63,979 bases of DNA, filler included, from Diploschistes diacapsis (GCA_023645945.1; 16 parts of 16 records of this genome joined end to end with filler, not necessarily neighbours in it); one strand, 5' to 3'; positions 20,255-63,257 are shown, counted from the whole stretch's first letter. The notes: a model not told the origin generated them from the letters alone. A program made the numbers and translations.

Positions 20255-22205
20255 GCAAGCACTTGCTCCAGTATGTCTTCCTCTGTCCTACAGACTTGCT
20301 CGCCACAGTAGTGCTCTTGCAACCATGCCATTCGCTTGACGTGTCGCCCAGCAGCCTCTAAGGTGGTGCACAAGAGGCGGCGCTCTTTGGGACTGGACAG
20401 GGTGTCGAGGCAGTAATATAACTCTGGGCTGCCAAACTGTCTGACGCGTTTCAAAGCTTGAAACGCATCCCTCACACAGCAGCTGTGTGCGCTGCTGAAG
20501 ACAAACATGTGACTAAAGTGTGGTTTTGTACCCCTCTCTTGAATGAAGTTGACCTGTATTCCAGCGTTCAGTTAGCAAGTGCTGATGAGTGCAAAGCGCT
20601 GGACCTTGTATGCTGAGTGCTCTGGCCATGCATTTGTGCAACACTACCACGTAATGCAGAGCAGTGTTAACCTCAACAGAGTTCATGTATGTCTGCACTC
20701 ACCCCAACAGTGAGCGTAGACGTGTACAGAAGCAGGCTGCACTGAAGCCAGCGGTGCTTCACATCAGCCAGGTCTGCCTCCTTCACACTGCCTGGAGTGT
20801 CCCGCGAGTAGTACAGGATGGCCAAGTCTGGCAACTGCTGCTTGACCTGATTGTGCAGCTTGTCAGCAAATGCTTTTGTGCCACAGAAGGCTACACAGTT
20901 CTTGCCAGACTTCAGGCGCTTGATGAGCTCATGTATAAACTCCTTCTTGTCATCAAGCCTATAGGCCTTGCGTGGCTCTTGGCACCATGAGTTGTAGATG
21001 ACCTTCACTTTCTCTGTGCGTGCGTTGAAAATTTGGTGCACCAGATTGAGCGTCCTGTTTGTCATGTAGGCATCTGCAAAGACAACCTTCTCGCCTCTCA
21101 ACAAGACATCATGCAGCACTGCGGTCACTCGCCCAGCACGGTCGCCCATTGTCTTCTCACTGCTGAGCTGCGCCAAGATGCTTTCGCTCTCGTCCATTAG
21201 CACAAGGTTGTATTTCTCAGCGCTTCTTAGACGCTCAAGCGACTCAGCCTGACAGACAATGCGTGGGACCTCAGCCAGGTCGGTACCCTCCATGGTCTTG
21301 TTGTATTGCACAAAGAGTAAGCTGTCTGGGCATTCAAGTGCAGTGCCATGCCTTTCTGTCCATGCAGCTTTGACAAGCCTATTGAAATTGCTGATGTGGT
21401 CATGGGCAAGGGTTACTCGATTGCTGACAATCAAGACGCGCCCTTCCCTAAGGACAATATCTGCAATAAGCTTCTCTGCTCCACGTGTCTTTCCTGCAGA
21501 GACACAGCATTACACTCTTAGCTTTGCACTCTTGCATACATTGCGTTGAACCTTACATCAGCGCTCAGCTTCAGATGTGGGAAACACAGCCCCAACTTGC
21601 CTGTACCAGGCTTGGACCAAATGACCAGACCAGCAGCAGTCTCCTTGCTGTAGTCTTGTAAGTATGGCTCGTTACATGCATGCAGCTCCCAATTGTATTG
21701 CTCACAGATGTTGTTGATGTCTGGCATGTAGAATTTTCTGAGCTTTGTCTCGCTTTCGCTCATGCGCTGTTCCTTGAAGAAGCGCTGCAGGCAGAATCAT
21801 TCCTCAGTTGGATAGCAAGTTTGGACTGTCTTTGCGTAGCATGTGCTTCAGTACAGCCTGAGCAAACTTGGCATCTGTCCTTTATCAGCACACAGCATGC
21901 AGGATCCTCAAACCACCATTGTGGTGGCCATTGGGTACTGCAATGTTGGCAATGTTTGTGCATACATTATACCACTTGAGTTCGCTGTGTGCTCTTTCAG
22001 GCAGGAGGCCCAGGACAACCTTGCGCAACAGTTCTTCTGGGATAGGGGGCCCTGCACTCAAGCCAGCTTGTGCAGCTGTCCGATTGAGAGGATTTGGAGC
22101 AGGTGGGCTTCCGTGTTGACCTTGAGGGTCCCTCAGCTTCACCGAAGCACGGGCAAGGTCATCCCGCTTGTAGTCCTTGCGTTCAAGAGGCAGTGAAGGA
22201 AGCAT
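20255..22205 (-). CDS. UL9/origin-binding-protein-like SF2 helicase with PriCT-2-like N-terminus; 4 exons (22205-21894, 21784-21601, 21493-20703, 20553 to contig end), 3' truncated
   Basis: After splicing: Walker A SKPGTGKT, VLIVSNRVTLA (Ia), CQAESLERL, Walker B LVLMDESES, VVFADA (III), VAFCGTK (IV), YTSTLTVGVNF...HFSHMF (V), DAFQALKRVR (VI); introns 21893-21785, 21600-21494 (GC-AG) and 20702-20554 all keep the frame; first intron and start are less certain. Confidence 0.85.
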
Positions 22206-22213
22206 GTTGCTGT

Positions 22214-23050
22214 TGTGATTCTTTAGTTGGCTGGCTGCCTTATGAGGGTGTGTTCACCTGATCACATGACAGGTTCCCGTAGCAATCCGCTATCGGTATG
22301 TCCGTACTGGTATGCCCTCATCCGTACCGGGTCACGTTGACACTGCCGGTAGCAAGAGCATCACAGGACAGTTGCAAAGGGTAATATCTGTCAACTGGGA
22401 TGTCCGGGCTGACACAAACAAGCCCAATCCTGTCAATACACTTCCTTAGAGAGCTCTGTACCGTAGAACATAATTTTTGTGACAGTCCGTACTTCTCTGT
22501 TGAGTGCCATTGCCTATCTTGCTTACTCACAGAGGTTTGCGGCTTTGCTCTCGCATTTGCCGCCGGCAAAGGCTTGTATCCGTCAAACAGAATGTCCGGG
22601 TTGACACAAAAAATGTGATTTGGTTCTTTAGTTGGCTGGCTGCCTTATGAGGGTGTGTTCACCTGATCACATGACTGGTACCCGTAGCAATCCGCTATCA
22701 GTATGTCCGTACTGGTATGCCCTCATCCGTACCGGGCTCACTTTGACACTGCCGGTGGCAAGAGCATCACAAGACAGTTGCAAAGGGTAACATCTGTCAA
22801 CAAGGATGTCCGGGCTGACACAAAAAAGGCAAATCCTGTCAATACACTCCCTTAGAGAGCTCTGTACCGTAGAACATACCTTTTGTGACAGTCCGTAGTT
22901 CTCCGTTGAACGCCATTGCCTATCTTGCTTACTCACGGAGGTTTGCGGCTTTGCTCTCGCATTTGCCGCCGGCAAAGGCTTGTATCTGTCAAACACCAAA
23001 AATGTGATTTGTGTTCCTTAAGGAACTCTGTATCATACAACAAAGTTTTT
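22214..23050. repeat. Tandem duplication with 405-bp period (two copies plus a diverged partial third) between the helicase and recombinase genes
   Basis: CTTTAGTTGGCTGGCTGCCTTATGAGGG at 22221 and 22626 with high identity throughout; diverged CTCTGTA...TTTTTGTGACAGTC again near 23015-23060. Confidence 0.95.
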
Positions 23051-23234
23051 GTGACAGTCTGTTGATGGGGTTGTCCGATTGAGCGTGCTTGCCTAAACCC
23101 TTACTCAAGGAGGTAGTCGCACTGTGAAGTAACCAGTCACGCTGATTGGTCAGGCCAGTCATGCGAACCGGTTGGGCCAACCTGTCAGACCAAGGACCCC
23201 TCATAGCCACAGGGCAAGCTCATAAGGACACATC

Positions 23235-24194
23235 ATGCCTCCTCAAATCAAACAACAAATAACACTCATGGTGCGAGGAGGGCGAAGCAAGGACGACAAT
23301 GCTCAAATAGACAACCTTTTTCGCCTCACTTCACCAGATTGGGTTTCTAGCAAAGAATCTGAGGAGTTGAGAGAAACCATTATCAACAACGAATGGTCAA
23401 AATCTGGTTTACAATCTACCACAGTAGAGCAATACAGAGTGGCTCTACGCAAGTGGCAAAAGTATATATTTCAACGGTTGATACACTTTCATTGTTCATC
23501 TGGGCAACTTGCAAGTTGAGACCTAACATGGTTTTTTGTGCTTTAGGTACGAGGCACTAATGAAGGAGAAAGATGCATCCTTCACGAGCTTGCAAGACAA
23601 AGAGCAGAAAGTGTGCGGCTTTTTGCATTGGTTGCTTGACGCAATTGACTTGAACAATACTGACTTGCAACATAAGGCAACCAAAGCTCCACAAACACAG
23701 CTGGATCATGCAATCCAAGCACTTAGCTGTGTCAAAAAATGCCAAATGGGCGTGTCTGGCCAAGCTGATGGTTGGAACCCCAAGAACTCTGTCATCAAGG
23801 GACCATTCATACGGGCCAAACAAATGCAAGCGGAAGTGGGATCATCAATGGGAGTTTTAGACAGCAAGCATCTGACCAACAGACAATACAATGCTTATCT
23901 TGATGAAAGCTGGACATTTGGGACAAGCCCGGAGCATGCATTGACAGGTATGTTCATGGTAGTTGAAGCCACCACAGCCACCAATTGCGGCCTTAGAGCT
24001 GAGGACTCCAGAGAATTGAGGTGGCCGATGTTAGCAATTGCTGAAGTCATTGGCAACATCAGGCCAGCACCTTGCATCCCTATGCAGCTGGGACTTCGGA
24101 GGGCTGGCAACAAGACATCACACATAGGCAAGGCCGAGTGGTTTGCCATGGTTGAAAACGCTTTGCCACAATGCTGCCCTGTGTTAGCAGTTGC
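23235..24194 (+). CDS. Crypton/NDC10-like tyrosine recombinase, 3' truncated; intron 23462-23546
   Basis: N-terminal TTVEQYRVALRKWQKY...KVCGFLHWL...TQLDHAIQAL...Q...NP; catalytic region CGLRAEDSR (Arg), GNKT...G (Lys), CCPVLAV; intron GTATAT...CCTAAC...TTTAG keeps the frame. Confidence 0.8.
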
Positions 24195-33433: not shown

Positions 33434-34986
33434 CTACCAAGCCCAAATTTTAAGCTAAAAGGGCAATCAGCGAGTGTAATGGGGTGCCAGTCGAGAAAGA
33501 GCTGTAAAACTTACGGTAGAGTCCCAAGAACCGGTACATAAGCTTATTCCGTCATTGCTAACACCAAGGCAGGAAACACGATTCTCATGTCCACTGAGAG
33601 TACCGACCCGTTCGCCTCTCAGAACATCCCAGACCTAAGGACAAAATCAATACTGGATGCTCTTGGCATATGGTATGCCAATAAGACAAAGCAAGCGGGG
33701 GCAACATACCTTGCATTCAAAATCATCGTAGCCCGCGAAGAGCAAGCGACCGGAAACAGAAAATCCGACCGAGGTTATACCGCACAAGATGGATTCGCTC
33801 TATAAAATAGATTGTTAATGTCTTGGTAGCCGGAGGGGGAGGCGAAAGTAGCAATAAAGAGCATCATGAGTTTAGGCAGTCGGACAGATTTGTCCCCCTG
33901 TGCTTTAACATTGAGAGACCAAAAAAGTCCAGAGAGCAAGACAAGCCCACATTGATTATGAAAAACAAAATGCAAGTGAATGCCTTGTGTCCAAGCGGAA
34001 ACCCGGTGTCCAATTAGCCTACAAAAAAAAGCCGTCTTAACTTACTGAGTAGGACATGACTTCACGGTCAGCACGGATATCGAAGAGCCTGCAGGATGCA
34101 TCATCGGAGCCGGTACCGAAGGCATTGCCATCCGGGAAGAATTGGATGGCGTTGATGTCAGATTCGTGACCGGCGAAGGTCTGCACAGCTCTGCCGGTAC
34201 GAATATCCCATAGTTTGGCAAAAGCATCGCAGGCTCCCGAAACAAAAACGTTCTGGTTGGTAGGATTGATGCTGATACTCATGACATCACCCAAGTGGTC
34301 GGCAAACTCTGTAACCTTTGAGCCTGTGTCTACATCCCACAGCATACAAGTCATGTCTCCAGATGAAGTAAGAATGCGGCGGTCATTGATAAACCTGCAG
34401 CACGATAGATACCCAGAATGTCCGGACAGCTCACGTGCTACACGGGTTGGCCCATCACGGGAAGAAAGGTTGTAGACGGAACATATGTTGTCGAGGCCAC
34501 CGCAGGCAACGTAATTCCCACTGGGGGCATACGCGCACGTCATGACCCAGGAAGAACGGAGGGGAATGGCGTGAACTTTATTAGTTGTATAGGCATCCCA
34601 GATGATGAGCTTGCCGTCTTGCGAAGCAGATACCAGGTGACGTCGATCGGTCGACCAATGCATGGCGTAAATTTTTGCAAGATGACCTTTGAGTAAGCGA
34701 CGAGGCTTCATACCAATGCGACCCAGAGGATCAGTGTTGCTCTGCGCCACGCTTCGGACTGAAGGTTGGGAGAAGACATCGTTAGCCTGTATTCCACGAG
34801 GGGTAAAGATTGTGCTGGTGAAGGGATCAAGCAATGCATGAGAAGCTTGAGATTGCTTGACTCACGTGAAGTGTCGGCAAGCTCGTCCTTTCTGCGTTTA
34901 ATTTTGTCCTTCAGACCTTCGGCATCGCGCCTCGCGGTTGCAATCTTGGTCTGCATTTCCTCACCCGACATGTTGTTGGCTGACAT
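33434..34986 (-). CDS. sfaD: Heterotrimeric G protein beta subunit, multi-exon
   Basis: [66 protein letters not shown]; last exon LKIWAW*. Confidence 0.96.
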
Positions 34987-40298: not shown

Positions 40299-40803
40299 NN
40301 NNNNNNNNNNNNNNNNNNNNNNNNNNNNNNNNNNNNNNNNNNTTAATTAATTAANNNNNNNNNNNNNNNNNNNNNNNNNNNNNNNNNNNNNNNNNNNNTT
40401 CATATATTTATTAATCAAATAAAGTTATAAATAATTTTATTTTTTAAATAATTAAAATTATATAATAAAAAAATTAAAAATATTTATAATTTTATATAAT
40501 TTATATATATTTTAAAGTACCGCGGGTACGCGGGAACTACCTACCCTATTAAGCTTAAAAGAATAAAAAAAATTAATTTCCGTTAAAATAACTACGCCCG
40601 TTAACGCTCGGATTCAAATGCCGGTAGTAACTCTGAGCTCTTCCAGATTTATAAAAAACAGACCAACTATAGCAGTACTGAAGTACTGCTCTCCAAGCGC
40701 ATTTAAATATGCTCAAAGTATGAAATTTCTCTCGACTATGTGATGGTCTATAACTCATGTCTCTCGTGCTGGTGACCCAGCCCCTCTTGCTCGCTATTCC
40801 ACC

Positions 40804-43104
40804 ATGAGCTATAGTTACGTATACAAGAGCAAGAATGAGCAATGGCGACATCACCGCAACGCTTCAAAGTCATTCGATGCGACGGTCATTGCGAGTACCA
40901 GCACCGCTCTAGTATATCTCATTTTGTTAGCTGGAGGCGCATACTATTTACTTCGTCGTTCAAACGTTCTACCTCCGAACGCGCTTCAACGGTTCCTCTG
41001 GCGCTGCTTCGTCTATTCGGTACCTCCATCGCTAGTTCTTGCCTTGGAAAGGAGGGCACTGACTAGGATGGAAGGGGCAGACAATCAGGAAAACTATGCA
41101 AATTCGCGGACTTTTGGAGCCAAGAGTGAGGCTGTTAGAAAGATTCTAGGATTTGAATCAAGTGTTTACTTGGACGGCTTCCGATCTCCCGGTTCGTTTA
41201 TGAGGATGAATGGGGGAAATTTTGGCGCGGAGAACGCAGCGTTACCTGGTCTATTCAATCGAGATAACGAGTGCTATCAGAACAGTGTCATTCAAGGCTT
41301 GGCTGCCCTGCCCTCATTTTCCGACTTCGTGAACGGATTGCCCTCTTCTCACACAGAAGGAGAGCATACTGCGCTAAGGGAAGTTCTTCAAAACGTTCTT
41401 GGCCAGCTAAATGACCCTGATCACTACGGTAAAGCGTTCTGGACACCATACGCTTTGAAGAGCATGAGCAGTTGGCAGCAGCAGGATGCTCAGGAGTACT
41501 ACTCGAAAGTAATCGACGAGCTGGAGAAAGACGCTGCAAAGTCGTTGCAGAAGGGGTTTGAAGACAATGATTCGCTAGGATTAGGCTCATTAAGGTCGGT
41601 GGTGAAGCGAAAAGAAGCAATTGGTGGAGCAAACACTCCCTATGGGCGAGATGCACCAAGCGATTCGAGTAAAACCATCAGTGAAGGCAAATTTCACGTT
41701 CCTATAGGCCTTTTGTCAAGCGTGCAGAATCCGCTAGAGGGCTTGCTAGCTCAACGTGTCGGATGCTTACGATGTGGCTTTGTCGAGGGGCTGTCTCTTA
41801 TCCCGTTCAACTGCCTCACAGTCTCGCTAGGCAGGGTTCGCTATACTGACATCAAGACTTGTCTTGACACCTACACCGATCTTGAGACTATCTCGGGCGT
41901 CGAGTGCGCTCGTTGCACTCTTCAACGGCAAGAGAAGATGTTCGTAAGGATGTTGGAAGCTTCGTCCGGGAGGGAAGAGGATCCGACCAGAAAAGCCTAC
42001 TACGAGCTTGCTGAGACTCGCCTGCAAGCCGTGAAAGCTGCACTTGAAAATCACGACTTTTCGGAGTCGACTCTGGCAAAGAAATGCAAGATACCGTCGA
42101 AATCTCGCGTCTCCACTAACAAGACCCGGCAGGCGGTGATCGCACGGGCGCCCAAAGCTCTGGCTATACACGTCAACCGCAGCGTCTTCGACGAGACCAC
42201 AGGCGCGCAATTCAAGAACTTTGCCGGCGTTCAGTTTCCTAAGCACCTAAATCTTGATCCATGGTGTCTTGGTGGTACCGGGGCCGCCGGCACTGGTACG
42301 GAAGAGGCAGAAGAATGGGAACTCGATCCATCCAAGTCCATGCTCGCCCGTGCTGAAACCGATGACACTAGCAACGACGTCTCGCAGTTCTCGGGTCCGG
42401 GCTCATCAGCACAGGGCCCGAGCAGCATCTACACCCTCCGCGCCGTCATCACACACTACGGCACCCACGGCGACGGCCACTACATCGCCTACCGACAAAG
42501 CTTGCAGTCAATCGCCGAGAAGGACCCGACAACCTGGTGGCGTCTCAGCGATGAAGAAGTGGTGCAAGTAGATGAGGATACTGTTCTGAATCAGGGTGGT
42601 GTATTTATGCTCTTCTATGAACGGGTCGACGAGAATAGTGCTGCTCCCACCAACGCCGCTGAACCGAGTGCGGCTTTAGAACGCGTACCTGCCTCGCCGA
42701 CCGCATGCGAGAGCGATCAATCTCACAAGCTCGCCGTGGAAAGCGAAAACAAATCTTACGCGGAGACCGCAGAGCCCATCAGCGCATCGCCGCAACAGAG
42801 TCCGGACAAACCTAGCCAGCACCCTCCCACAGCCGTCACGAAGCAGGGATCTCACCAGGAACCCATACAACAAGACGAAGATTCCAACAAACCCCAAAAC
42901 GAACCCCAAGTCCAAGTCCCAGCCCCAGAACCCACGGACCAACCCTACAATAACATGCCACTCCTCGCCACACCCCCAGGACAGGACAACGGCAATCCCC
43001 AGCGGCTCCCTCATACACACCAAATGCGCACGGCAAGCGAAGTCAACAAGCTCGACGCCGGCGTCGACCACAGTGGGCTGAGGGGCATGGTGCCGGCTGT
43101 GTAA
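40804..43104 (+). CDS. Ubiquitin carboxyl-terminal hydrolase (USP, Ubp1-like) with N-terminal transmembrane segment
   Basis: Cys box GLFNRDNECYQNSVIQ, QQDAQE, His box AVITHYGTHGDGHYIAYR, WWRLSDE; 766-aa ORF. Confidence 0.93.
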   Translation: MSYSYVYKSKNEQWRHHRNASKSFDATVIASTSTALVYLILLAGGAYYLLRRSNVLPPNALQRFLWRCFVYSVPPSLVLALERRALTRMEGADNQENYANSRTFGAKSEAVRKILGFESSVYLDGFRSPGSFMRMNGGNFGAENAALPGLFNRDNECYQNSVIQGLAALPSFSDFVNGLPSSHTEGEHTALREVLQNVLGQLNDPDHYGKAFWTPYALKSMSSWQQQDAQEYYSKVIDELEKDAAKSLQKGFEDNDSLGLGSLRSVVKRKEAIGGANTPYGRDAPSDSSKTISEGKFHVPIGLLSSVQNPLEGLLAQRVGCLRCGFVEGLSLIPFNCLTVSLGRVRYTDIKTCLDTYTDLETISGVECARCTLQRQEKMFVRMLEASSGREEDPTRKAYYELAETRLQAVKAALENHDFSESTLAKKCKIPSKSRVSTNKTRQAVIARAPKALAIHVNRSVFDETTGAQFKNFAGVQFPKHLNLDPWCLGGTGAAGTGTEEAEEWELDPSKSMLARAETDDTSNDVSQFSGPGSSAQGPSSIYTLRAVITHYGTHGDGHYIAYRQSLQSIAEKDPTTWWRLSDEEVVQVDEDTVLNQGGVFMLFYERVDENSAAPTNAAEPSAALERVPASPTACESDQSHKLAVESENKSYAETAEPISASPQQSPDKPSQHPPTAVTKQGSHQEPIQQDEDSNKPQNEPQVQVPAPEPTDQPYNNMPLLATPPGQDNGNPQRLPHTHQMRTASEVNKLDAGVDHSGLRGMVPAV

Positions 43105-44787: not shown

Positions 44788-46252
44788 TCACACAATGGCC
44801 GTTCCGAAATCGAAGCCCTCTCCGCCCTTCGCCACCTCCCTCTCACGTCCCTCCCTTGCCTCGTAGGTGACGGAAACCTCGTTCGTTTTCTTGATGATCC
44901 CCTTGGATGTGGTGGTGCCCACGCCGGAATACGCAGTCTTGCCTTCTCTTTCGGCAGCCCCGAGGATGCTTCTGTCGCTCTCATCATCTGCGTGGCCCAT
45001 GACGGTACGCTCGAGATCCTTCTCCTTGTCTGCCCAGTGGTTGTCGCCGCCGCCATAGATACGGCTGCGGTGGGACGTGTGCTTGGGCTTTGCGTCGAGC
45101 TGGTAGCTATTGGAGTGGTCCTTGTGGCCGGAGCTAGCGCCGCCATAGTATGCTGTCGAGCGCCAGCCACGGATGAGAGTGCGGAGGTAAGGGATAGAGA
45201 CTGCGATGATGGTGACGCCTGTCTCGGTGGCGGCCCAGATGAGGATAGAGGAGCAGTAAACTAACGCGAGATGTCAGTAGTGGTGAGGCGTAGGATGTGG
45301 GATTTGACGGTGGGCATGATGGAGGCTTACAGGTGAAGTCTTCCTGAAGGCCAATGTTTCGTAAGTAAGACGTCTTGATGATCGCTGTGACACCAGCACT
45401 ATTGTATAATCAGCGGAGGGGCTTCGGTAAATACTGCGGCTAACATACAATACACCGAGGCTCATGGCTACGCCGACGCCAACCTTCTCTCGATGCTTCA
45501 TTTGGAGCTTCCAGACAATGGTCCACGGCAGCATTGCAAGTATGAAATCCATCAGGCCGGAATAACCTGTGCCAATCAGGGGAAGTTCGTGGGGAAAGCA
45601 GGCCAGATAGAAACTTACTTCCTGCAGCAATCGTGTAGTAGGTCATGACGGCGGGATCCCAGCATTTGGCGGGTATAGAAAAATCCCATAGATGTGCTGT
45701 TGGCTGGCATTGAGCAAGGTAGAGAATAGCACACAGCCCCATGACAATGTTCATCGAGACGATGATCCACCATAGCAGCATCTTCTGCCACTTTTGTGTA
45801 ACGGTCCTGAGTAGAGTCACGGCGAAGCATGTCTTGCTTAACGAACAGCCGATGATGACCATGAATTCGCCAATGTAGACAAGCTTAAGGGCAGGCGAGA
45901 TGTTTGCAGGGTCGATGTCCACCGCATGCTTTCCCACGCCGAGCGTTACAGATACGGTGATGCATATTGTATAGACGGTCAGGAGTAACTGGGAGCTTTA
46001 TTAGAATTGCTTTCGGAAGTGCCTTCTCGTGGGAGACTACGAACCCATGAGACAATCAGGATCCAGTCGTCCCACCCGAAGGTCTTGCTCAATCTGTACT
46101 TGCAATACAGTCTCAACAGAAGAATGACAAGAGGTGTTGCGGTCATCGTCCACTGCATAACATCACTTTAGCACATTGAAGATGCCCTCGAGTAGAAGGA
46201 ACCACACCATAGCGCCCACAATGGTCGCTCCATTGTCTGATACGGATTCCAT
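44788..46252 (-). CDS. Pth11-like seven-transmembrane integral membrane protein (no CFEM domain), multi-exon
   Basis: Spliced LRLYCK...FGWDDW, GVGKH, SLSKTCFAVTLLR, QCQP..HLWD, MDFILAMLPW, EKVGVGVAMSLG. Confidence 0.88.
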
Positions 46253-57516: not shown

Positions 57517-59772
57517 ATGGCCCACGACGCTTACTCAAAAACAAACGACCCGCCTCCGGGCTATGACCCTTCAGACACGCATCCGCAGCATCCGCAATCA
57601 TACTACACCAGCGATGGGTTTCGAGCAAGATCTGGGGGATCGTCAAAAAACGGGACTGAGCTCCGCCTACCTCAAGAACAACAACCGGGCGCTCGGCAGC
57701 CTCTCAAACCTATTGCTGAAGCCGTCAACACCGCGTTCGACAATGCACATGTTCCCGGTATCTCGCATGAGGTCATGACACAAATTACTCAGAACGTTAT
57801 CGAACAATTGAAAAAGACTGGGTCTTTGGGGGGTGCCCAGACACCAACGTCCCAGAACCATCAACAGCCTCTTCACCCTCCTGCGACTCCTCGCTATCCT
57901 CCACCACCCTCTCAACAGCACAATCCGCCCCCTACATCTCCTACGGCTTATACCGCCGGATCGCCTCCCTCTCCGGCGAGGAATGTCCATACTCCACCTT
58001 CGCCGCAACGGCATACCGAGCAACATTCCGACTCTCCGGAATCCAGAGCGTCTGGCGTGTGTGAGACTGCAAACATGCATCGGGCTCCGGAAGAGAAGAG
58101 GCCTGCATCGAACTTGAGCAACCATAGCGATACCCAAGAGAGTCGCCCCAAACCTGCAAAAAGAGCGCTAAGTTCAAAAGAGGAGACAACCTTGGAGAAA
58201 ATATGGGGACCTCTATTCGACGGAGACGGGAAGCCTACCAACAGGCTTAGCCAGTTTCTTCGAGGTCTTGCGGTGCACATGGTAAGTCGACGGTCCTCTA
58301 AAGATGGATGTCTTGGAGATGCTGACCGGCTCCCAGATCGAAGATTATGAGCCCAAGCACAGCCTTGTTGTCACTCCGAACAAGATGGTAAAGTTTTACG
58401 AGGACGTCCGCATCTCGCAGGAACTGTACCCATGGCACAGTACGTGTTCGATCTGTGGATGGCAGACAAAACCCAGACTGACTAGTTTCCAGTTGTTTTT
58501 GACGACGACCAGTCTTCAATCTCCCGGATGTACCGTCAACTCCGTATCCAGCATCACCTGACCCAAGAAAAAGACCACCTGCATGAGCGGCCAGATATTC
58601 CTGGTCTCACGCCCGACGGCTTTGAGCGCTGGGCTACCTTGATGATTCTGGCCCACCCGGAAGAGGAATTCGAGCGTATCAAATTAGCTGCCTTGAACAT
58701 GCCAATCAACAACCCAGACGACAAAAAGGAGCGTTTCCCAAAGGATCTCTCCAGAAGGCTCTTCCCGAAGCACGAGAACTTCGATATTCGCGAGCTGCTC
58801 ATTTCCGCCATGGAGGCTCATGCCAAAATCACAGTGGAGCGGCCCTTGCAGGAGACAACCACGCCAAGAGCTGACCAGACCCAGCACCATCAGCGCAGAG
58901 GCTCTGAAACGCACTCCCACCACTCGTTTACCGACGCTTCCGTCAACCCTGAATCGGCTCCCCCTCCGCCGCCGCCGCCGCCTCCACCGGGCAACATCGA
59001 GCGAGAGCGCAAGCCCTACAGTAGGGCAGCCAACGAAACCGTCATCGACGACACAAACCCTCGTCCGGCAGTCCCTCAACCGATCGAGCGTGAGCGCAAA
59101 CCTTATAGCGTGGCCCCCGGTAACGTTGGACGCGTATATGAGGAGCCAGAGAGCGGTCGTGCAACGGTGCCGGCTACTGCTCCCTCGCACCCTCCGCCAC
59201 CACCGGGCGGCCCGCCGCCAAGCCTCCACCGCTCCTCGTCTGCCGCTTCGAGACCCATCAACATTCCTCCCCTGCCTCCTGGTGGCCCCGCTGCACACAA
59301 AATGTCGACTTCTGAGCTGACGCCTCCGCCGCAAACTAATCAGCCGCATCTTGGTCGCCGTGCCTCCGTTCGCCGTCCCATTCGCAACCACAGCCCCTCT
59401 GCCAGCGTCGGCGCAGCCGACCCTCGACGCTCAGAAGGCGATATTCGAGGCTTCCAGCCCAGCAGCTACGACCCACCGAGTCACATGGCGAACCACATGG
59501 CGATGCGTGAGCGTGAGCGTGAGCGTGAGCGTGAACGTGAACGTGAACGTGAACGTGAGGGGCTGCCTGCAGGACATCATTCGGTCGATGCTGCCTACGA
59601 CGAGGATGTAAGACGGTATGGCGGCCGCGAGGCTGAAATGCGGAGGGGAGAATACATGCGAGGCGGGAGCCCGAGCAGGAGGTACGAGGTGCCGCCGGAG
59701 CGACGATCGACCTACAACGAAGAGGACTTTTACCGTGTGCCGTCCAGACGGGATGCTGGGGTTTATCGTTGA
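57517..59772 (+). CDS. Conserved fungal proline-rich hypothetical protein, 3 exons
   Basis: EETTLEKIWGPLFD...RLSQFLRGLA, IEDYEP, PGLTPDGFERW, ERFPKDLSRRLFP, repeated IERERKPY; RE dipeptide run. Confidence 0.85.
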
Positions 59773-60719: not shown

Positions 60720-63257
60720 ATGGCAATCTTCTTGCGACGACGACTGAGATGCTTCTATTGTAATCATCAGTCAGACCAGAGGTATACGGCAGGGCTGTTA
60801 AAGTGGAAATGTGAATACTGTGACGCTTTCAATTACCTTGACTCTGTAAGTACTCCCAAACAATTTCAGAGCTTACATTCATATACTGACTAAGACTACT
60901 AGAAAGGTGATATCACCGACCCACCGGTGCATGAGGTAGCTGCGCCGGTGAAGGACCGATATGCCAGGAATATCCGCCGCTCGATCTCACCTACGATTCC
61001 TCCATCCAAACAATCGATCTTCTGCCAGAGGTGTCTAAACAACCAGCATCTCTTAGTCCAGAGTCTCGCCAATTACCTGCCTCCAAGGGCTGATCCGAGA
61101 TACAATGATTTTGAGGCGAACTTGCCCGCTTACCGCAAGAGCCTGGAGGAAAGGTACCCGCAAGTATGCGAAGTATGCGAACCGAATGTGAGGGACAGGA
61201 TAAAGCAATCTGGGTATATGGCGAAAACGGATCATCTACGGCGTATGAGGGAAAAGACGCAGAGTGCAATGCACCAGATGAAGCAGAGCTGGCAACGGAT
61301 GTCAGTACTTACTTTGGTTGGATGCCTCATCTGGTATCTCTCCATAGTAAGCCAGTTACTATGGCACGGATTAGAATTGGCCTCGTTTGTCTCACAAGAT
61401 AGCTCTGAGCTCGTGGATGATACAGCATCTCTCTCTGAATGCATTTTTAGAGCAGCTACTTCGTATCAAGTCAATACGAGGTGTGCCCAGAGTATATACT
61501 CCCCAGCGGGTTGGATTTTGGTCCTTAGTTTGCTTACAGTATGGTGGAACCCCATCATGCGGCGGCGATGGATTGACCGGGCCATCGGTCTGAAGGAGTT
61601 CTACAAGCTGCAACTGATAGTCCTGCTTACTAGATTTGCCGCCTGGTATACGCTCGGAAATGCCAGGAAACTGGATCTGGAGCCGACGTTTGTCCAGGCG
61701 GTTCACGCTGCTATGCTTGCTCTGAACATCATAGTAAGTGCTCATAAGGAATATTTATGACACCTAATGATACCTGTCATCTAGGTTCCAATCATCTCCT
61801 ATAGAACGGCGTATATCGCGCGGAGTCCCAGGGTGACCTTCCAAGATACACTCGAGCCTCTTGTTCCCGAGAAGCAGCGTGAAGCTACCGCCAGGAGCAC
61901 TGCTCAAAGACACACTCCACCGACTTCGCAAACGTCAAGCACCCCATCGCCACCGCCTCACTTTCCAGACGCACGTCAAGTGCAACCTTCGAGGCAGTCC
62001 GAAGCTCCTGCTTATCATCCACTAACCCCACCTCCAGAGGATGGGGATGAAATGGATATTGACATACCTGAGAAGACTTACAACTTGCGACCATCGATAC
62101 ACAGACGCATCGATCATCCTCAAGCGACCGGCCCATCGCCATTCTACGGCAAGATACCCGCTGCGCCGGTAAGCATGGAAAGGCAACTGCGAAACCCTCC
62201 GAACAAACCCTCATTTCAGAAAACCTCTCCGGAGCGCCAAGAATCTTTCTTTCAGAGCATGACCAAGCGTGGAAGCCCAACTTCAACCGGTCCTAGCCCT
62301 AATTCGGGTAATCTCCCCAGCGAGATACATATGAGACCGGCAAGCTTCTACACAAAGCAAGACCGCGATGCTCAAGAGACTGGTCTGGAATCCTGGTTTA
62401 CAGATTTCTTCTCCCTTGGCGAGCCACCCGGAGCGCACCAGACACCCAACGAAAACAAAGATGGCCAACCAGAAGTTTCCTCTGCCACTATCCTTTGGTA
62501 CCAACTCTTCTCCGTCCTTTCGCTCTGCTTAGGTGCCTACGGCTGGACCTTCGCCTCCGCATACTCCTCCTTCTCTCTACCCCTTTACTTCCTCTCCATT
62601 GGCATATCAGCCATCATATCCGGTACGCGACTTCGCTCTATCTTGTCCAATCCTGTCGTAAACCATAGCGACCTCCTCCTTTGCCTTCTCGAGCTCTTTG
62701 GCTCCGCAGCCATCGGCTACCAGATTCGACAAGCGCGTCTGGCTGGTTACCGTATAGACGAGGAATTGGGCTCTTTTCCCTTGTGGTATTTTGGTTTTAT
62801 GATCTTCCAAGAGTCTTCGAGCTTTGTATCTATATATAGGCGGCAGGCCGCACTATTGAAGCCGGAACCCGATCCTGAATACCGGCTGCCACAGCACCAA
62901 CCTCCACAGAGTAAAGGAACTGCACCGCCGCGAGATCAGAGACCACTTCCTTCAGAAACGAGCCTAGCTCAATGCTCTAGCAACCAGCCCTACCAACCAT
63001 CGCTACCCTCCTCCGCTCCTTCGCTCTCAACCATCAGTGCTCAACCGCCAGCACCTTCACGATCAGTGTTCGAGTACCATCCGAACTCGTCCGAGCAGAG
63101 GGGGACCCGCTTGCAAGATCAAAGTACCGGGCAATCACCGGGCTCGAAGGGAATGTCAAGCTTGACTTTGGGGCTCAGTGATGGGACGCCTGTTCAGAGA
63201 CGGGCGGCCAGACCGAGGGGCATGGCAAGGAATCCGTGGGAGATTGGCGGGCTTTGA
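60720..63257 (+). CDS. ima1: Ima1/Samp1-like inner nuclear membrane protein, 3 exons
   Basis: LRCFYC, WKCEYCDAFNYLD, GDITDPP, FCQRCLNNQ, YPQVCEVCE (four CxxC) followed by transmembrane segments. Confidence 0.88.

Follow-up and report, generated by a model that had tools for sequence, protein, structure and literature searches.

Cryptons are the least understood of the DNA transposons. The Chlamydomonas element CryptonF-1_cRei is a CryptonF transposon, that is, a DNA transposon with a tyrosine recombinase, and in mutation-accumulation work Crypton excisions are clean, yet copy number rises; the mode of transposition is called complex (PMC9977147). Viral replication proteins are a second point of reference. 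UL9-like helicases of superfamily 2 (SF2) occur with an archaeo-eukaryotic primase (AEP) in mimivirus R8, F1055L of African swine fever virus (ASFV), ostreid herpesvirus 1 (OsHV-1), and some Yaraviridae (PMC11253617), and protist endogenous viruses with a primase-helicase and a tyrosine recombinase are known (PMC10120064). Ngaro elements, which are tyrosine-recombinase retrotransposons, prefer the endogenous virophages of Cafeteria and are mostly in intergenic DNA there (PMC8547959). The locus described here brings a Crypton-like recombinase gene and a UL9-like helicase gene together. It is part of a 63,979-base stretch from a lichen assembly (Diploschistes diacapsis, GCA_023645945.1), which is called the window below. 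No described family with this arrangement, and no pairing of a Crypton-type recombinase with a UL9-type helicase or primase-helicase, was found in the literature covered, including that on Trebouxia (supplements, most subscription journals, and Repbase reports lie outside this coverage).

The locus is best read as a rearranged, probably defective copy of a virus-derived integrative element that would be present in many copies in the nuclear genome of the alga Trebouxia. Such an element would have two modules. One is a CryptonF-like recombinase unit, which elsewhere has a small upstream open reading frame (ORF) and a downstream GCR1_C-like gene. The other is a PriCT_2 plus UL9-like SF2 helicase of probable virophage or giant-virus ancestry, accompanied by a 406-bp repeat that carries a 19-mer three times. 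The modules appear to have been joined head to head repeatedly, and in what look like sister elements an AEP-PriCT_2-D5 primase-helicase takes the helicase's position. The window consists of 16 unrelated contigs of about 3.9 kb each, in order of falling length, separated by linkers of the form N44-TTAATTAATTAA-N44. The element occupies exactly one of them, a contig of 3,940 bp with a GC content of 0.50. A preliminary description, made from sequence alone, had reported two divergent genes around a repeat-rich spacer of about 1 kb, both running off a single contig, and this layout is confirmed. The features are given below in window positions; L numbers denote loci fetched for comparison, and P0039 is a 910-aa Trebouxia relative of the helicase.

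20255..24194: the element contig
20255..22205, minus strand: UL9/Herpes_ori_bp-type SF2 helicase gene, partial, off the contig (Pfam PF02399; tblastn to P0039)
21788..22205, minus strand: N-terminal exon region, PriCT_2-like, damaged (homology to the PriCT_2 part of the L006 and L007 primase-helicases)
21601..21787, minus strand: helicase exon, ending with the first half of Walker A (SKPGTG)
21494..21600, minus strand: intron 1, GC-AG, 107 nt (donor GCAAGT and position kept in L004 and L009)
20703..21493, minus strand: helicase core exon, motifs I to V, with MDESES (open frame, 91% identity to P0039)
20554..20702, minus strand: intron 2, GT-AG, 149 nt (position kept in L004)
20255..20553, minus strand: helicase exon with motif VI (QALKRVR), off the contig
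22211..23113, no strand: tandem repeat, 406-bp unit x1.9, and a partial third unit
22400..22824, plus strand: 19-mer ATGTCCGGGYTGACACAAA, three times, at 22400, 22592, and 22806
23113..23114, no strand: junction of the helicase/repeat module with a 5'-truncated recombinase unit
23235..24194, plus strand: Crypton-like tyrosine recombinase gene, partial, off the contig
23235-23476, plus strand: recombinase exon 1, ATG at 23235
23477-23546, plus strand: putative recombinase intron, GT-AG, 70 nt (removal gives a 296-aa open frame)
23547-24194, plus strand: recombinase exon 2, off the contig

The pairing of a replication gene with the recombinase recurs in other copies. A single metagenome scan with the recombinase alignment gave 29 loci, eight of which contain the start of the recombinase together with 1.9 kb or more of upstream sequence. 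A helicase or primase-helicase is upstream and divergent in six of the eight: the helicase in L004, L005, and L009, and a primase-helicase instead in L006, L007, and L012, the last matching a segment of L006 exactly. In L028 all that is present is an oppositely oriented helicase-like scrap of 42 aa, and nothing was found within 2.1 kb upstream of the recombinase in L002. L011 begins within the 406-bp repeat, some 390 bp ahead of the recombinase ATG, and is probably another linked copy. In annotated Trebouxia sp. genomes, the helicase and recombinase genes carry adjoining locus tags in C0005 (006232/006233) and C0006 (014064/014062). Primase-helicase and recombinase tags are neighbours in C0010 (013284/013285 and 012539/012538) and five apart in C0004 (006851/006846). 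All five copies with a linked helicase (the window, L004, L005, L009, and L011) share one orientation, with the recombinase pointing away from the helicase, and these copies have at least four different junctions. Among the other helicase loci listed none adjoins a listed recombinase tag, but the lists are incomplete and this carries little weight.

The helicase belongs to the UL9 type. Its 278-aa core ORF matches the Herpes_ori_bp family of Pfam (E 1.4e-17; 63.6 bits, the cut-off being 20), and the motifs quoted in the preliminary description are present (SKPGTGK|T, MDESES, YTSTLTVGV|NF, QALKRVR). The gene starts with an ATG at 22205, spans residues 1-584 of P0039 by tblastn, with the C-terminal third beyond the contig end, and is 72-89% identical to Trebouxia proteins. 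Its structure is that of a nuclear gene. The Walker A sequence GTGKT is whole only once intron 1 is removed, the VGV|NF motif is interrupted by intron 2 and whole only after splicing, and joining 21787-21601, 21493-20703, and 20553-20255 gives a 425-aa open frame. Both introns are at the same codon positions in L004 (71% nucleotide identity), where the intron interiors are unalignable. The gene is transcribed, and one splice is seen in RNA: the joint 21492->21600 occurs in the polyA RNA runs X15 and X16, both from one study, but not in the two DNA runs, and it fits the GC-AG intron 1 within a 4-base ambiguity. Intron 2 is retained in the RNA contigs that cross it.

The N-terminal part of the helicase is related to PriCT_2. 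Residues 58-153 of P0039 share 32-34% identity with the PriCT_2 part of the L006 and L007 primase-helicases, a part that exceeds the Pfam PriCT_2 cut-off. The window-type helicase begins about 55 aa ahead of this region and has no N-terminal AEP primase. An exon-like ORF is found just upstream of the helicase N-terminus in L004 (L004:3259-3744, minus strand; motifs LAVLDLD and SKGKHYFF). Its Prim-Pol match is below the 22.8-bit cut-off (E 0.0049, 17.8 bits), and the diverged L004 lineage may retain an AEP primase that the window type lacks. One X16 RNA contig with a short side of 30 letters omits 21785-22019, with minus-strand GT..AG ends; it was too weak to be used.

Both genes are present in multiple copies in Trebouxia genomes, and both are under purifying selection. 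Helicase proteins form one 90%-identity cluster of 19 members (C0005, C0009, C0010, with several loci per genome) and three more clusters; no close relatives were found in prokaryote genomes. Between diverged helicase copies the ratio of nonsynonymous to synonymous substitution rates (dN/dS) is 0.19 in the core (217 codons) and 0.06 in the next exon, where dS is saturated. The recombinase proteins form 61 clusters, mostly of about 689 aa, from Trebouxia sp. C0005, C0006, C0009, and C0010, metagenomes, and Logan assemblies; C0004 members were found in a later look-up. Between diverged recombinase copies dN/dS is 0.14-0.26, so that the values for the two genes together range from 0.06 to 0.26.

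Some joints in the helicase region do not belong to the helicase gene. Plus-strand GT..AG joints are found only in RNA (21275->21365, 21275->21566, 21275->21998, and 20769->21068, within 20769-22001), and the antisense acceptor at 22000 is preceded by a pyrimidine tract. This suggests a spliced transcript antisense to the helicase and heading toward the spacer. The X1 DNA joints 20508->20674 and 21509->21591 have non-canonical ends with unidentified letters between and were left uninterpreted. The RNA joint 22089->23545 has 11 foreign letters inside it and was taken as chimeric.

We read the recombinase as CryptonF-like, although it falls short of formal Pfam membership. The window fragment has the motifs LRAEDSR, GNKT, and CCPV, on which its assignment to the NDC10/Crypton type had rested, and it shows only the box I arginine (GLRAEDS) and the lysine (GNKT) before the contig ends. 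By itself it matched no Pfam family. Among 1.84 billion representatives there are 27 relatives, the best a 618-aa protein with 92% identity. The full-length relatives (about 689 aa) retain R, K, HxxR, W, and Y; the preliminary description had asked whether HxxR and the tyrosine are kept and whether the gene is single-copy. In an alignment of 16 members GLRAEDS, (G/S)(N/S)K, LHIFRS, SWGRW, and (F/H/S)Y line up. The tyrosine is invariant and the histidine and W-G-R are near-invariant, while the arginine of HxxR is lysine in P0083. NDC10_II (PF16787) is found in six of the 16 at residues 139-316 (best E 4.7e-4) and in the L004 recombinase (22.2 bits, E 8.6e-5), in each case under the 26.3-bit cut-off, and the relative P0086 has a precomputed PF16787 match. 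GCR1_C (PF12550) is also found in six of the 16, at residues 548-608 (best E 0.043), under its 23-bit cut-off. In Atlas, a protein language model resource, the recombinase adjoins fungal clusters (score 0.96, 194 of 256 features) in which 77% of the members have NDC10_II and 56% have GCR1_C. No reverse transcriptase or RNase H family was found in the recombinase proteins or neighbouring ORFs. A profile search of solved structures gave just two unrelated chains (E 0.78 and 1.8), and an AlphaFold2 model from 16 relatives was unused (mean predicted local distance difference test score 51.8; below 50 in the catalytic region, 94-331). The recombinase intron is putative; the RNA contigs that cross it are unspliced.

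The spacer holds the best conserved part of the locus. It is 1,029 bp long (22206-23234; GC 0.49), and its tandem repeat begins 6 bp from the helicase ATG on the upstream side. The 406-bp units are 94% identical over 22219-22995, and the partial third unit extends to 23113. The repeat of the window is 91-94% identical to those of L009 and L011, compared with 71-88% for coding parts; the values are 91.5% for the repeat and 72.4% for the recombinase between the window and L011, and 94.4% and 71.3% between L009 and L011. The three copies of ATGTCCGGGYTGACACAAA compare with 0.01 expected. Outside the window this 19-mer was found in 3 of the 34 loci fetched (L005, L009, and L011), and these are the three that share the 406-bp repeat. 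It is a candidate origin-binding site only. The spacer had been called origin-like; the repeats are there, and an origin function is conjecture.

The sister elements have a different replication gene and a further recombinase. The features that define them, and the accessory gene of the recombinase unit, are as follows.

L006:3627-6266 and L007:4924-7692, minus strand: primase-helicase, 879 aa and 923 aa, intact
L007:462-1433 and L014:4184-5086, minus strand: 324-aa protein with phage-integrase-like motifs, no Pfam match
L006:12376-13098, L002:5220-5939, and L022:6532-7248, minus strand: 240-aa GCR1_C-like gene

The primase-helicases of L006, L007, and L012 are about 2.3-3.7 kb upstream of the recombinase and contain AEP_C962R (E 2.7e-40 and 4.8e-44), PriCT_2, D5_N, and DUF5906 domains. 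Their proteins form clusters of 83, 68, and 22 members; between diverged primase-helicase copies dN/dS is 0.34. L001, L010, L017, L024, and L026 have a common arrangement, possibly representing one locus, with a decayed primase-helicase in that place followed by a second divergent recombinase. The 324-aa protein, of which a scrap is found in L006 as well, appears to be a second, virus-type recombinase of the primase-type elements. Its Atlas neighbours are all viral clusters, mainly of Preplasmiviricota or Nucleocytoviricota (score 0.98), and in one of these 16% of the members have Phage_integrase. Repeat arrays with self-matches offset by about 160 bp are found in L001 (4556-5600), L003, L005, L010, L017, L022, L024, and L026; they separate the 3' side of one recombinase subfamily from the 3' end of the decayed primase-helicase.

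The element contig derives from the alga and not from the fungus that dominates the lichen assembly. Relatives of both genes, 72-92% identical, are found in Trebouxia sp. assemblies with contigs of up to 4 Mb, which identifies it as photobiont DNA within an assembly that is mostly mycobiont. Trebouxia is the main lichen photobiont. Long ORFs on the other contigs of the window match ordinary eukaryotic families, several of them typically fungal; TAF8_C is among these families, and others are listed here.

34040-34861: G-beta
40744-43101: UCH
45443-45997: Fung_rhodopsin
58486-59769: DUF7514
60903-61757: Ima1_N

Near-identical sequence was found in 20 of the 24 public runs listed, from 11 studies and mostly labelled lichen metagenome. 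In run X2, which may be the window's own source sample, one contig matches the 3' part of the helicase and extends 2,081 bases past the left contig end, and another matches the recombinase and extends 4,408 bases past the right end; the repeat region between them is covered by short pieces only.

The reading placed first, which we hold tentatively, is that of a two-module integrative element in which Crypton-like excision and integration are combined with helicase-repeat replication. It is ranked first because of the recurrent pairing in one orientation, the replacement of one replication gene by a non-orthologous one, the evidence of selection, and the fact that the helicase has no other visible means of spreading. 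In such an element the recombinase would excise DNA and re-integrate it site-specifically by way of a circle. The helicase, acting on the repeats with a polymerase of the host or a helper virus, would give the excised DNA extra replication, now or formerly. We infer a functional coupling of the two genes. A bolder form of this reading is possible but speculative: the loci would be copies of "replicating Cryptons", undescribed capsid-less integrative replicons made of a Crypton unit, interchangeable viral replication modules, and a repeat-built origin, whose excised circle would undergo amplification prior to re-integration, perhaps aided by an infecting virus.

Several observations weigh against the two-module reading. 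Most recombinase copies lack the UL9-like helicase, which is present in just 3 of the 29 loci; linkage recurs in L004, L005, and L009, probably in L011, and in the C0005 and C0006 tags, but the question raised earlier, whether copies would be found unlinked, is answered only in part in favour of linkage. The loci may also be partly orthologous and not independent copies. The recombinase most often has a small ORF rather than a replication gene as its divergent neighbour. The two genes are 7 kb apart in L004, with two other ORFs between. Identities are discordant: the recombinases of L009 and L004 are 96.1% identical and their helicases 69.2%, and L011 has a repeat identity of 90-94% and a recombinase identity of 71-74%. 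The primase-type elements' own viral-type recombinase makes the Crypton-like unit look like a lodger. Clustering of helicase, primase, and recombinase in islands could yield neighbours without shared function. The spacer has no AT-rich stretch, and no element termini, circular junctions, or empty sites were found in the copies examined. The window copy itself is damaged. The PriCT_2-like N-terminus, recognized by homology, has two consecutive stop codons in frame (21885-21887 and 21882-21884), lacks stretches of 8 and 11 aa that intact relatives have, and changes frame before residue 160, and the window junction is a secondary deletion. The preliminary description had proposed one self-replicating element that excises as a circle. 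Its genes and their linkage hold, but the recombinase unit is separable and its junctions vary, and of the termini, circles, empty sites, and capsid genes that it named as things to look for, none was found in locus flanks of up to 10 kb.

The junctions and the gene content of the recombinase unit bear most directly on the next explanation. According to it, an autonomous Crypton integrates preferentially in or near endogenous virophage or polinton-like elements that own the helicase and the repeats, and the two do not cooperate. This is ranked second and is possible, though doubtful. The sequences on either side of 23113/23114 have alternative continuations elsewhere, which marks the junction in the window as a secondary deletion. 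The left module continues past 23113 in L005, L011, and an X1 contig as (A/G)TTTGGGTACACAAC..., and the right module, which starts from 23114 with TAGTCGCACTG..., is preceded in L003, L006, and L028 by other, mutually similar sequence. L005 has the first 25 or so codons of an L011-type recombinase, after which comes a unit belonging to a different recombinase subfamily. L009 has a complete recombinase unit that starts about 200 bp beyond the repeat, and in L004 two zinc-finger-like ORFs separate the modules. Such various junctions, the nested recombinase units of L005 and L001, and the incongruent identities all suit repeated insertion.

The recombinase unit is also separable, far outnumbers the helicase, and has conserved partners of its own. 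A small ORF of about 95-117 aa is directly upstream and divergent in 14 loci, twice in L001; its copies share 40-88% amino acid identity and match no Pfam family, and it is missing in the window and L011. In L001 this basic ORF is at 498-848 on the minus strand, as it is in the same place in 13 other loci, with the motif KAKYNAEYYK..Y.INR.KA.KRGN...KWNIKW. The 240-aa GCR1_C-like gene is downstream and convergent in L002, L004, L006, L007, L022, L023, and L025 and beside the second L001 recombinase. The GCR1_C-like domain of this gene shares 31-33% identity with the C-terminal domain of the recombinase itself, and the product may serve as an accessory DNA-binding factor. On the left, similarity ends near the stop of the small ORF (about 548 in L001), breakpoints differ among copies, and the right edge varies. 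A CACCG-type Crypton terminus was considered and rejected: CACCG precedes the window's junction point by a few bases in L001 and L006, GCCG stands there in L003 and L028, and the partner side has no shared core. A blastn breakpoint at 23201 is a drop in similarity between recombinase subfamilies and no junction. The viral character of the 324-aa recombinase, all of whose Atlas neighbours are viral, and the precedent of Ngaro in the Cafeteria virophages (PMC8547959) favour independent insertion as well. However, the supposed host element is unproven as a virus, no capsid or packaging gene having been found in the flanks searched. Spliceosomal introns are conserved in the helicase gene, which has spread in near-identical copies without any visible mobility gene of its own, and independent insertion does not readily give one orientation in all five helicase-linked copies.

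The viral relatives of the helicase raise a third explanation, an unlikely one, in which the locus forms one arm of a whole endogenous virus. The virus would be a larger provirus (15-40 kb or more), virophage/polinton-like or small giant-virus-like, with its capsid and packaging genes beyond the flanks. A scan of IMG/VR with the helicase alignment gave five contigs (L030-L034) with Herpes_ori_bp proteins of 1,055-1,109 aa, three of the five with PriCT_2, that are 28-34% identical to the Trebouxia helicase. Sputnik-type major capsid domains are found in L030 and L031, a V18/19 minor capsid domain in L031, and A32-like ATPases in L031 and L034; these contigs are virophages, and they hold the nearest viral relatives of the helicase. 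PF00589 was found in none of the four virophage records searched, L033 being outside the search, and IMG/VR has no close relatives of the helicase, recombinase, or primase-helicase. The ASFV-C962R-like primase-helicase and viral-type recombinase of the sister copies, and the endogenous viruses with such genes in protists (PMC10120064), would fit a provirus. So would the proximity of helicase and primase-helicase tags, which are 2-14 tags apart for three of the four helicase tags listed in C0010 (002924/002922, 012932/012941, 002278/002264) and form one pair in C0009 (001161/001147).

The capsid searches argue the other way. In 257 ORF translations from the Trebouxia-type loci, a few scanned twice, no capsid, penton, packaging-ATPase, or protease family matched; this absence is no proof, since the flanks are no longer than 10 kb and Pfam detects polinton-like capsids poorly. 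A tblastn search of the loci (217,527 bases) and the element contig, with capsid, penton, and ATPase proteins of virophages as queries, gave only E about 0.7. A host cation-efflux gene is 3.3 kb past the L011 recombinase, and conserved introns and dozens of copies are more transposon-like. The viral arm that the preliminary description offered as an alternative thus keeps its helicase kin and viral-type sister genes but has no capsid in the flanks searched. In the one Trebouxia genome preprint searched by word, neither 'virus' nor 'viral' occurs.

That unrelated genes are neighbours by chance within a repeat-rich island, or that the contig is chimeric, is very improbable: helicase, primase, and recombinase genes do cluster within a few locus tags, with LINE-like (long interspersed nuclear element) debris among them, and the contig comes from a fragmented lichen assembly, but the head-to-head order recurs in L005, L009, L011, and two annotated genomes with constant orientation, and the X2 contigs match both genes and pass both ends, subject to the short-piece coverage of the repeats and the possible identity of X2 with the source sample.

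Other features were noted around the loci. In C0010 primase-helicase, recombinase, and helicase tags are clustered: 012528, 012533, 012538, 012539, and 012544 are on one contig, and the helicase tags 002924 and 012932 are two and nine tags from the primase tags 002922 and 012941. These clusters are islands or larger composite elements. A 321-aa ORF in L004 (12579-13541, plus strand) has a C-terminal Cys/His motif, which we take to be of the LINE ORF2 tail type, although no tool confirmed it; about 1 kb here is present in L004 and absent from L009. Host genes nearby are an SBF transporter before L021, a HAD hydrolase after L013, and a formamidase in L014.

If the two-module reading is correct, a Crypton with a replication helicase and a conserved repeat would have a route to copy gain through a replicated excised circle, and Cryptons would be linked to the world of virophages and polintons. 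"Replicating Cryptons" would be a eukaryotic counterpart of the bacterial satellites with integrase and primase-helicase. If instead an independent Crypton has inserted beside the helicase, this would be the second case, after the Ngaro elements of Cafeteria, of recombinase elements homing on endogenous virus-like DNA. The finding would also put on record that virophage-type replication genes are dispersed across genomes of Trebouxia, the chief photobiont of lichens.

Compared with known systems, the Trebouxia locus shares features with both Cryptons and viruses. Like CryptonF (PMC9977147), its recombinase has R, K, HxxR, W/H, and Y, an NDC10_II-like core, and a GCR1_C-like tail (the last two under Pfam cut-offs here), and there is no reverse transcriptase. 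Like CryptonF-1_cRei it is multi-copy, intron-bearing, and green-algal, with nested and self-adjacent copies. It is unlike CryptonF in that the recombinase unit has two extra small genes, and unlike described Cryptons, which carry no replication gene, in that this unit is repeatedly paired with a replicative helicase or primase-helicase. The helicase resembles the UL9-type helicases of giant viruses (PMC11253617) and the proteins of the virophages L030-L034 in having PriCT_2 followed by a Herpes_ori_bp core. In contrast to the AEP-PriCT_2-SF2 proteins of giant viruses, the window type has no N-terminal AEP primase, with only the sub-threshold Prim-Pol exon in L004, and in contrast to both giant-virus and virophage helicases it has spliceosomal introns and is multi-copy in a nuclear genome. 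The endogenous virophages and polinton-like viruses (PMC10120064, PMC12220804) likewise have viral-type integration and replication genes, and endogenous virophages have many copies per protist genome and interchangeable replication modules. The Trebouxia loci differ from endogenous virophages in that their genes have introns, the flanks yielded no capsid or packaging genes, and the recombinase beside the helicase is Crypton/NDC10-like and not of the virophage type. Ngaro elements have reverse transcriptase/RNase H and split direct repeats, unlike the Trebouxia unit. As with Ngaro in Cafeteria (PMC8547959), however, a tyrosine-recombinase element is found recurrently beside virus-like endogenous DNA, mostly in intergenic positions.

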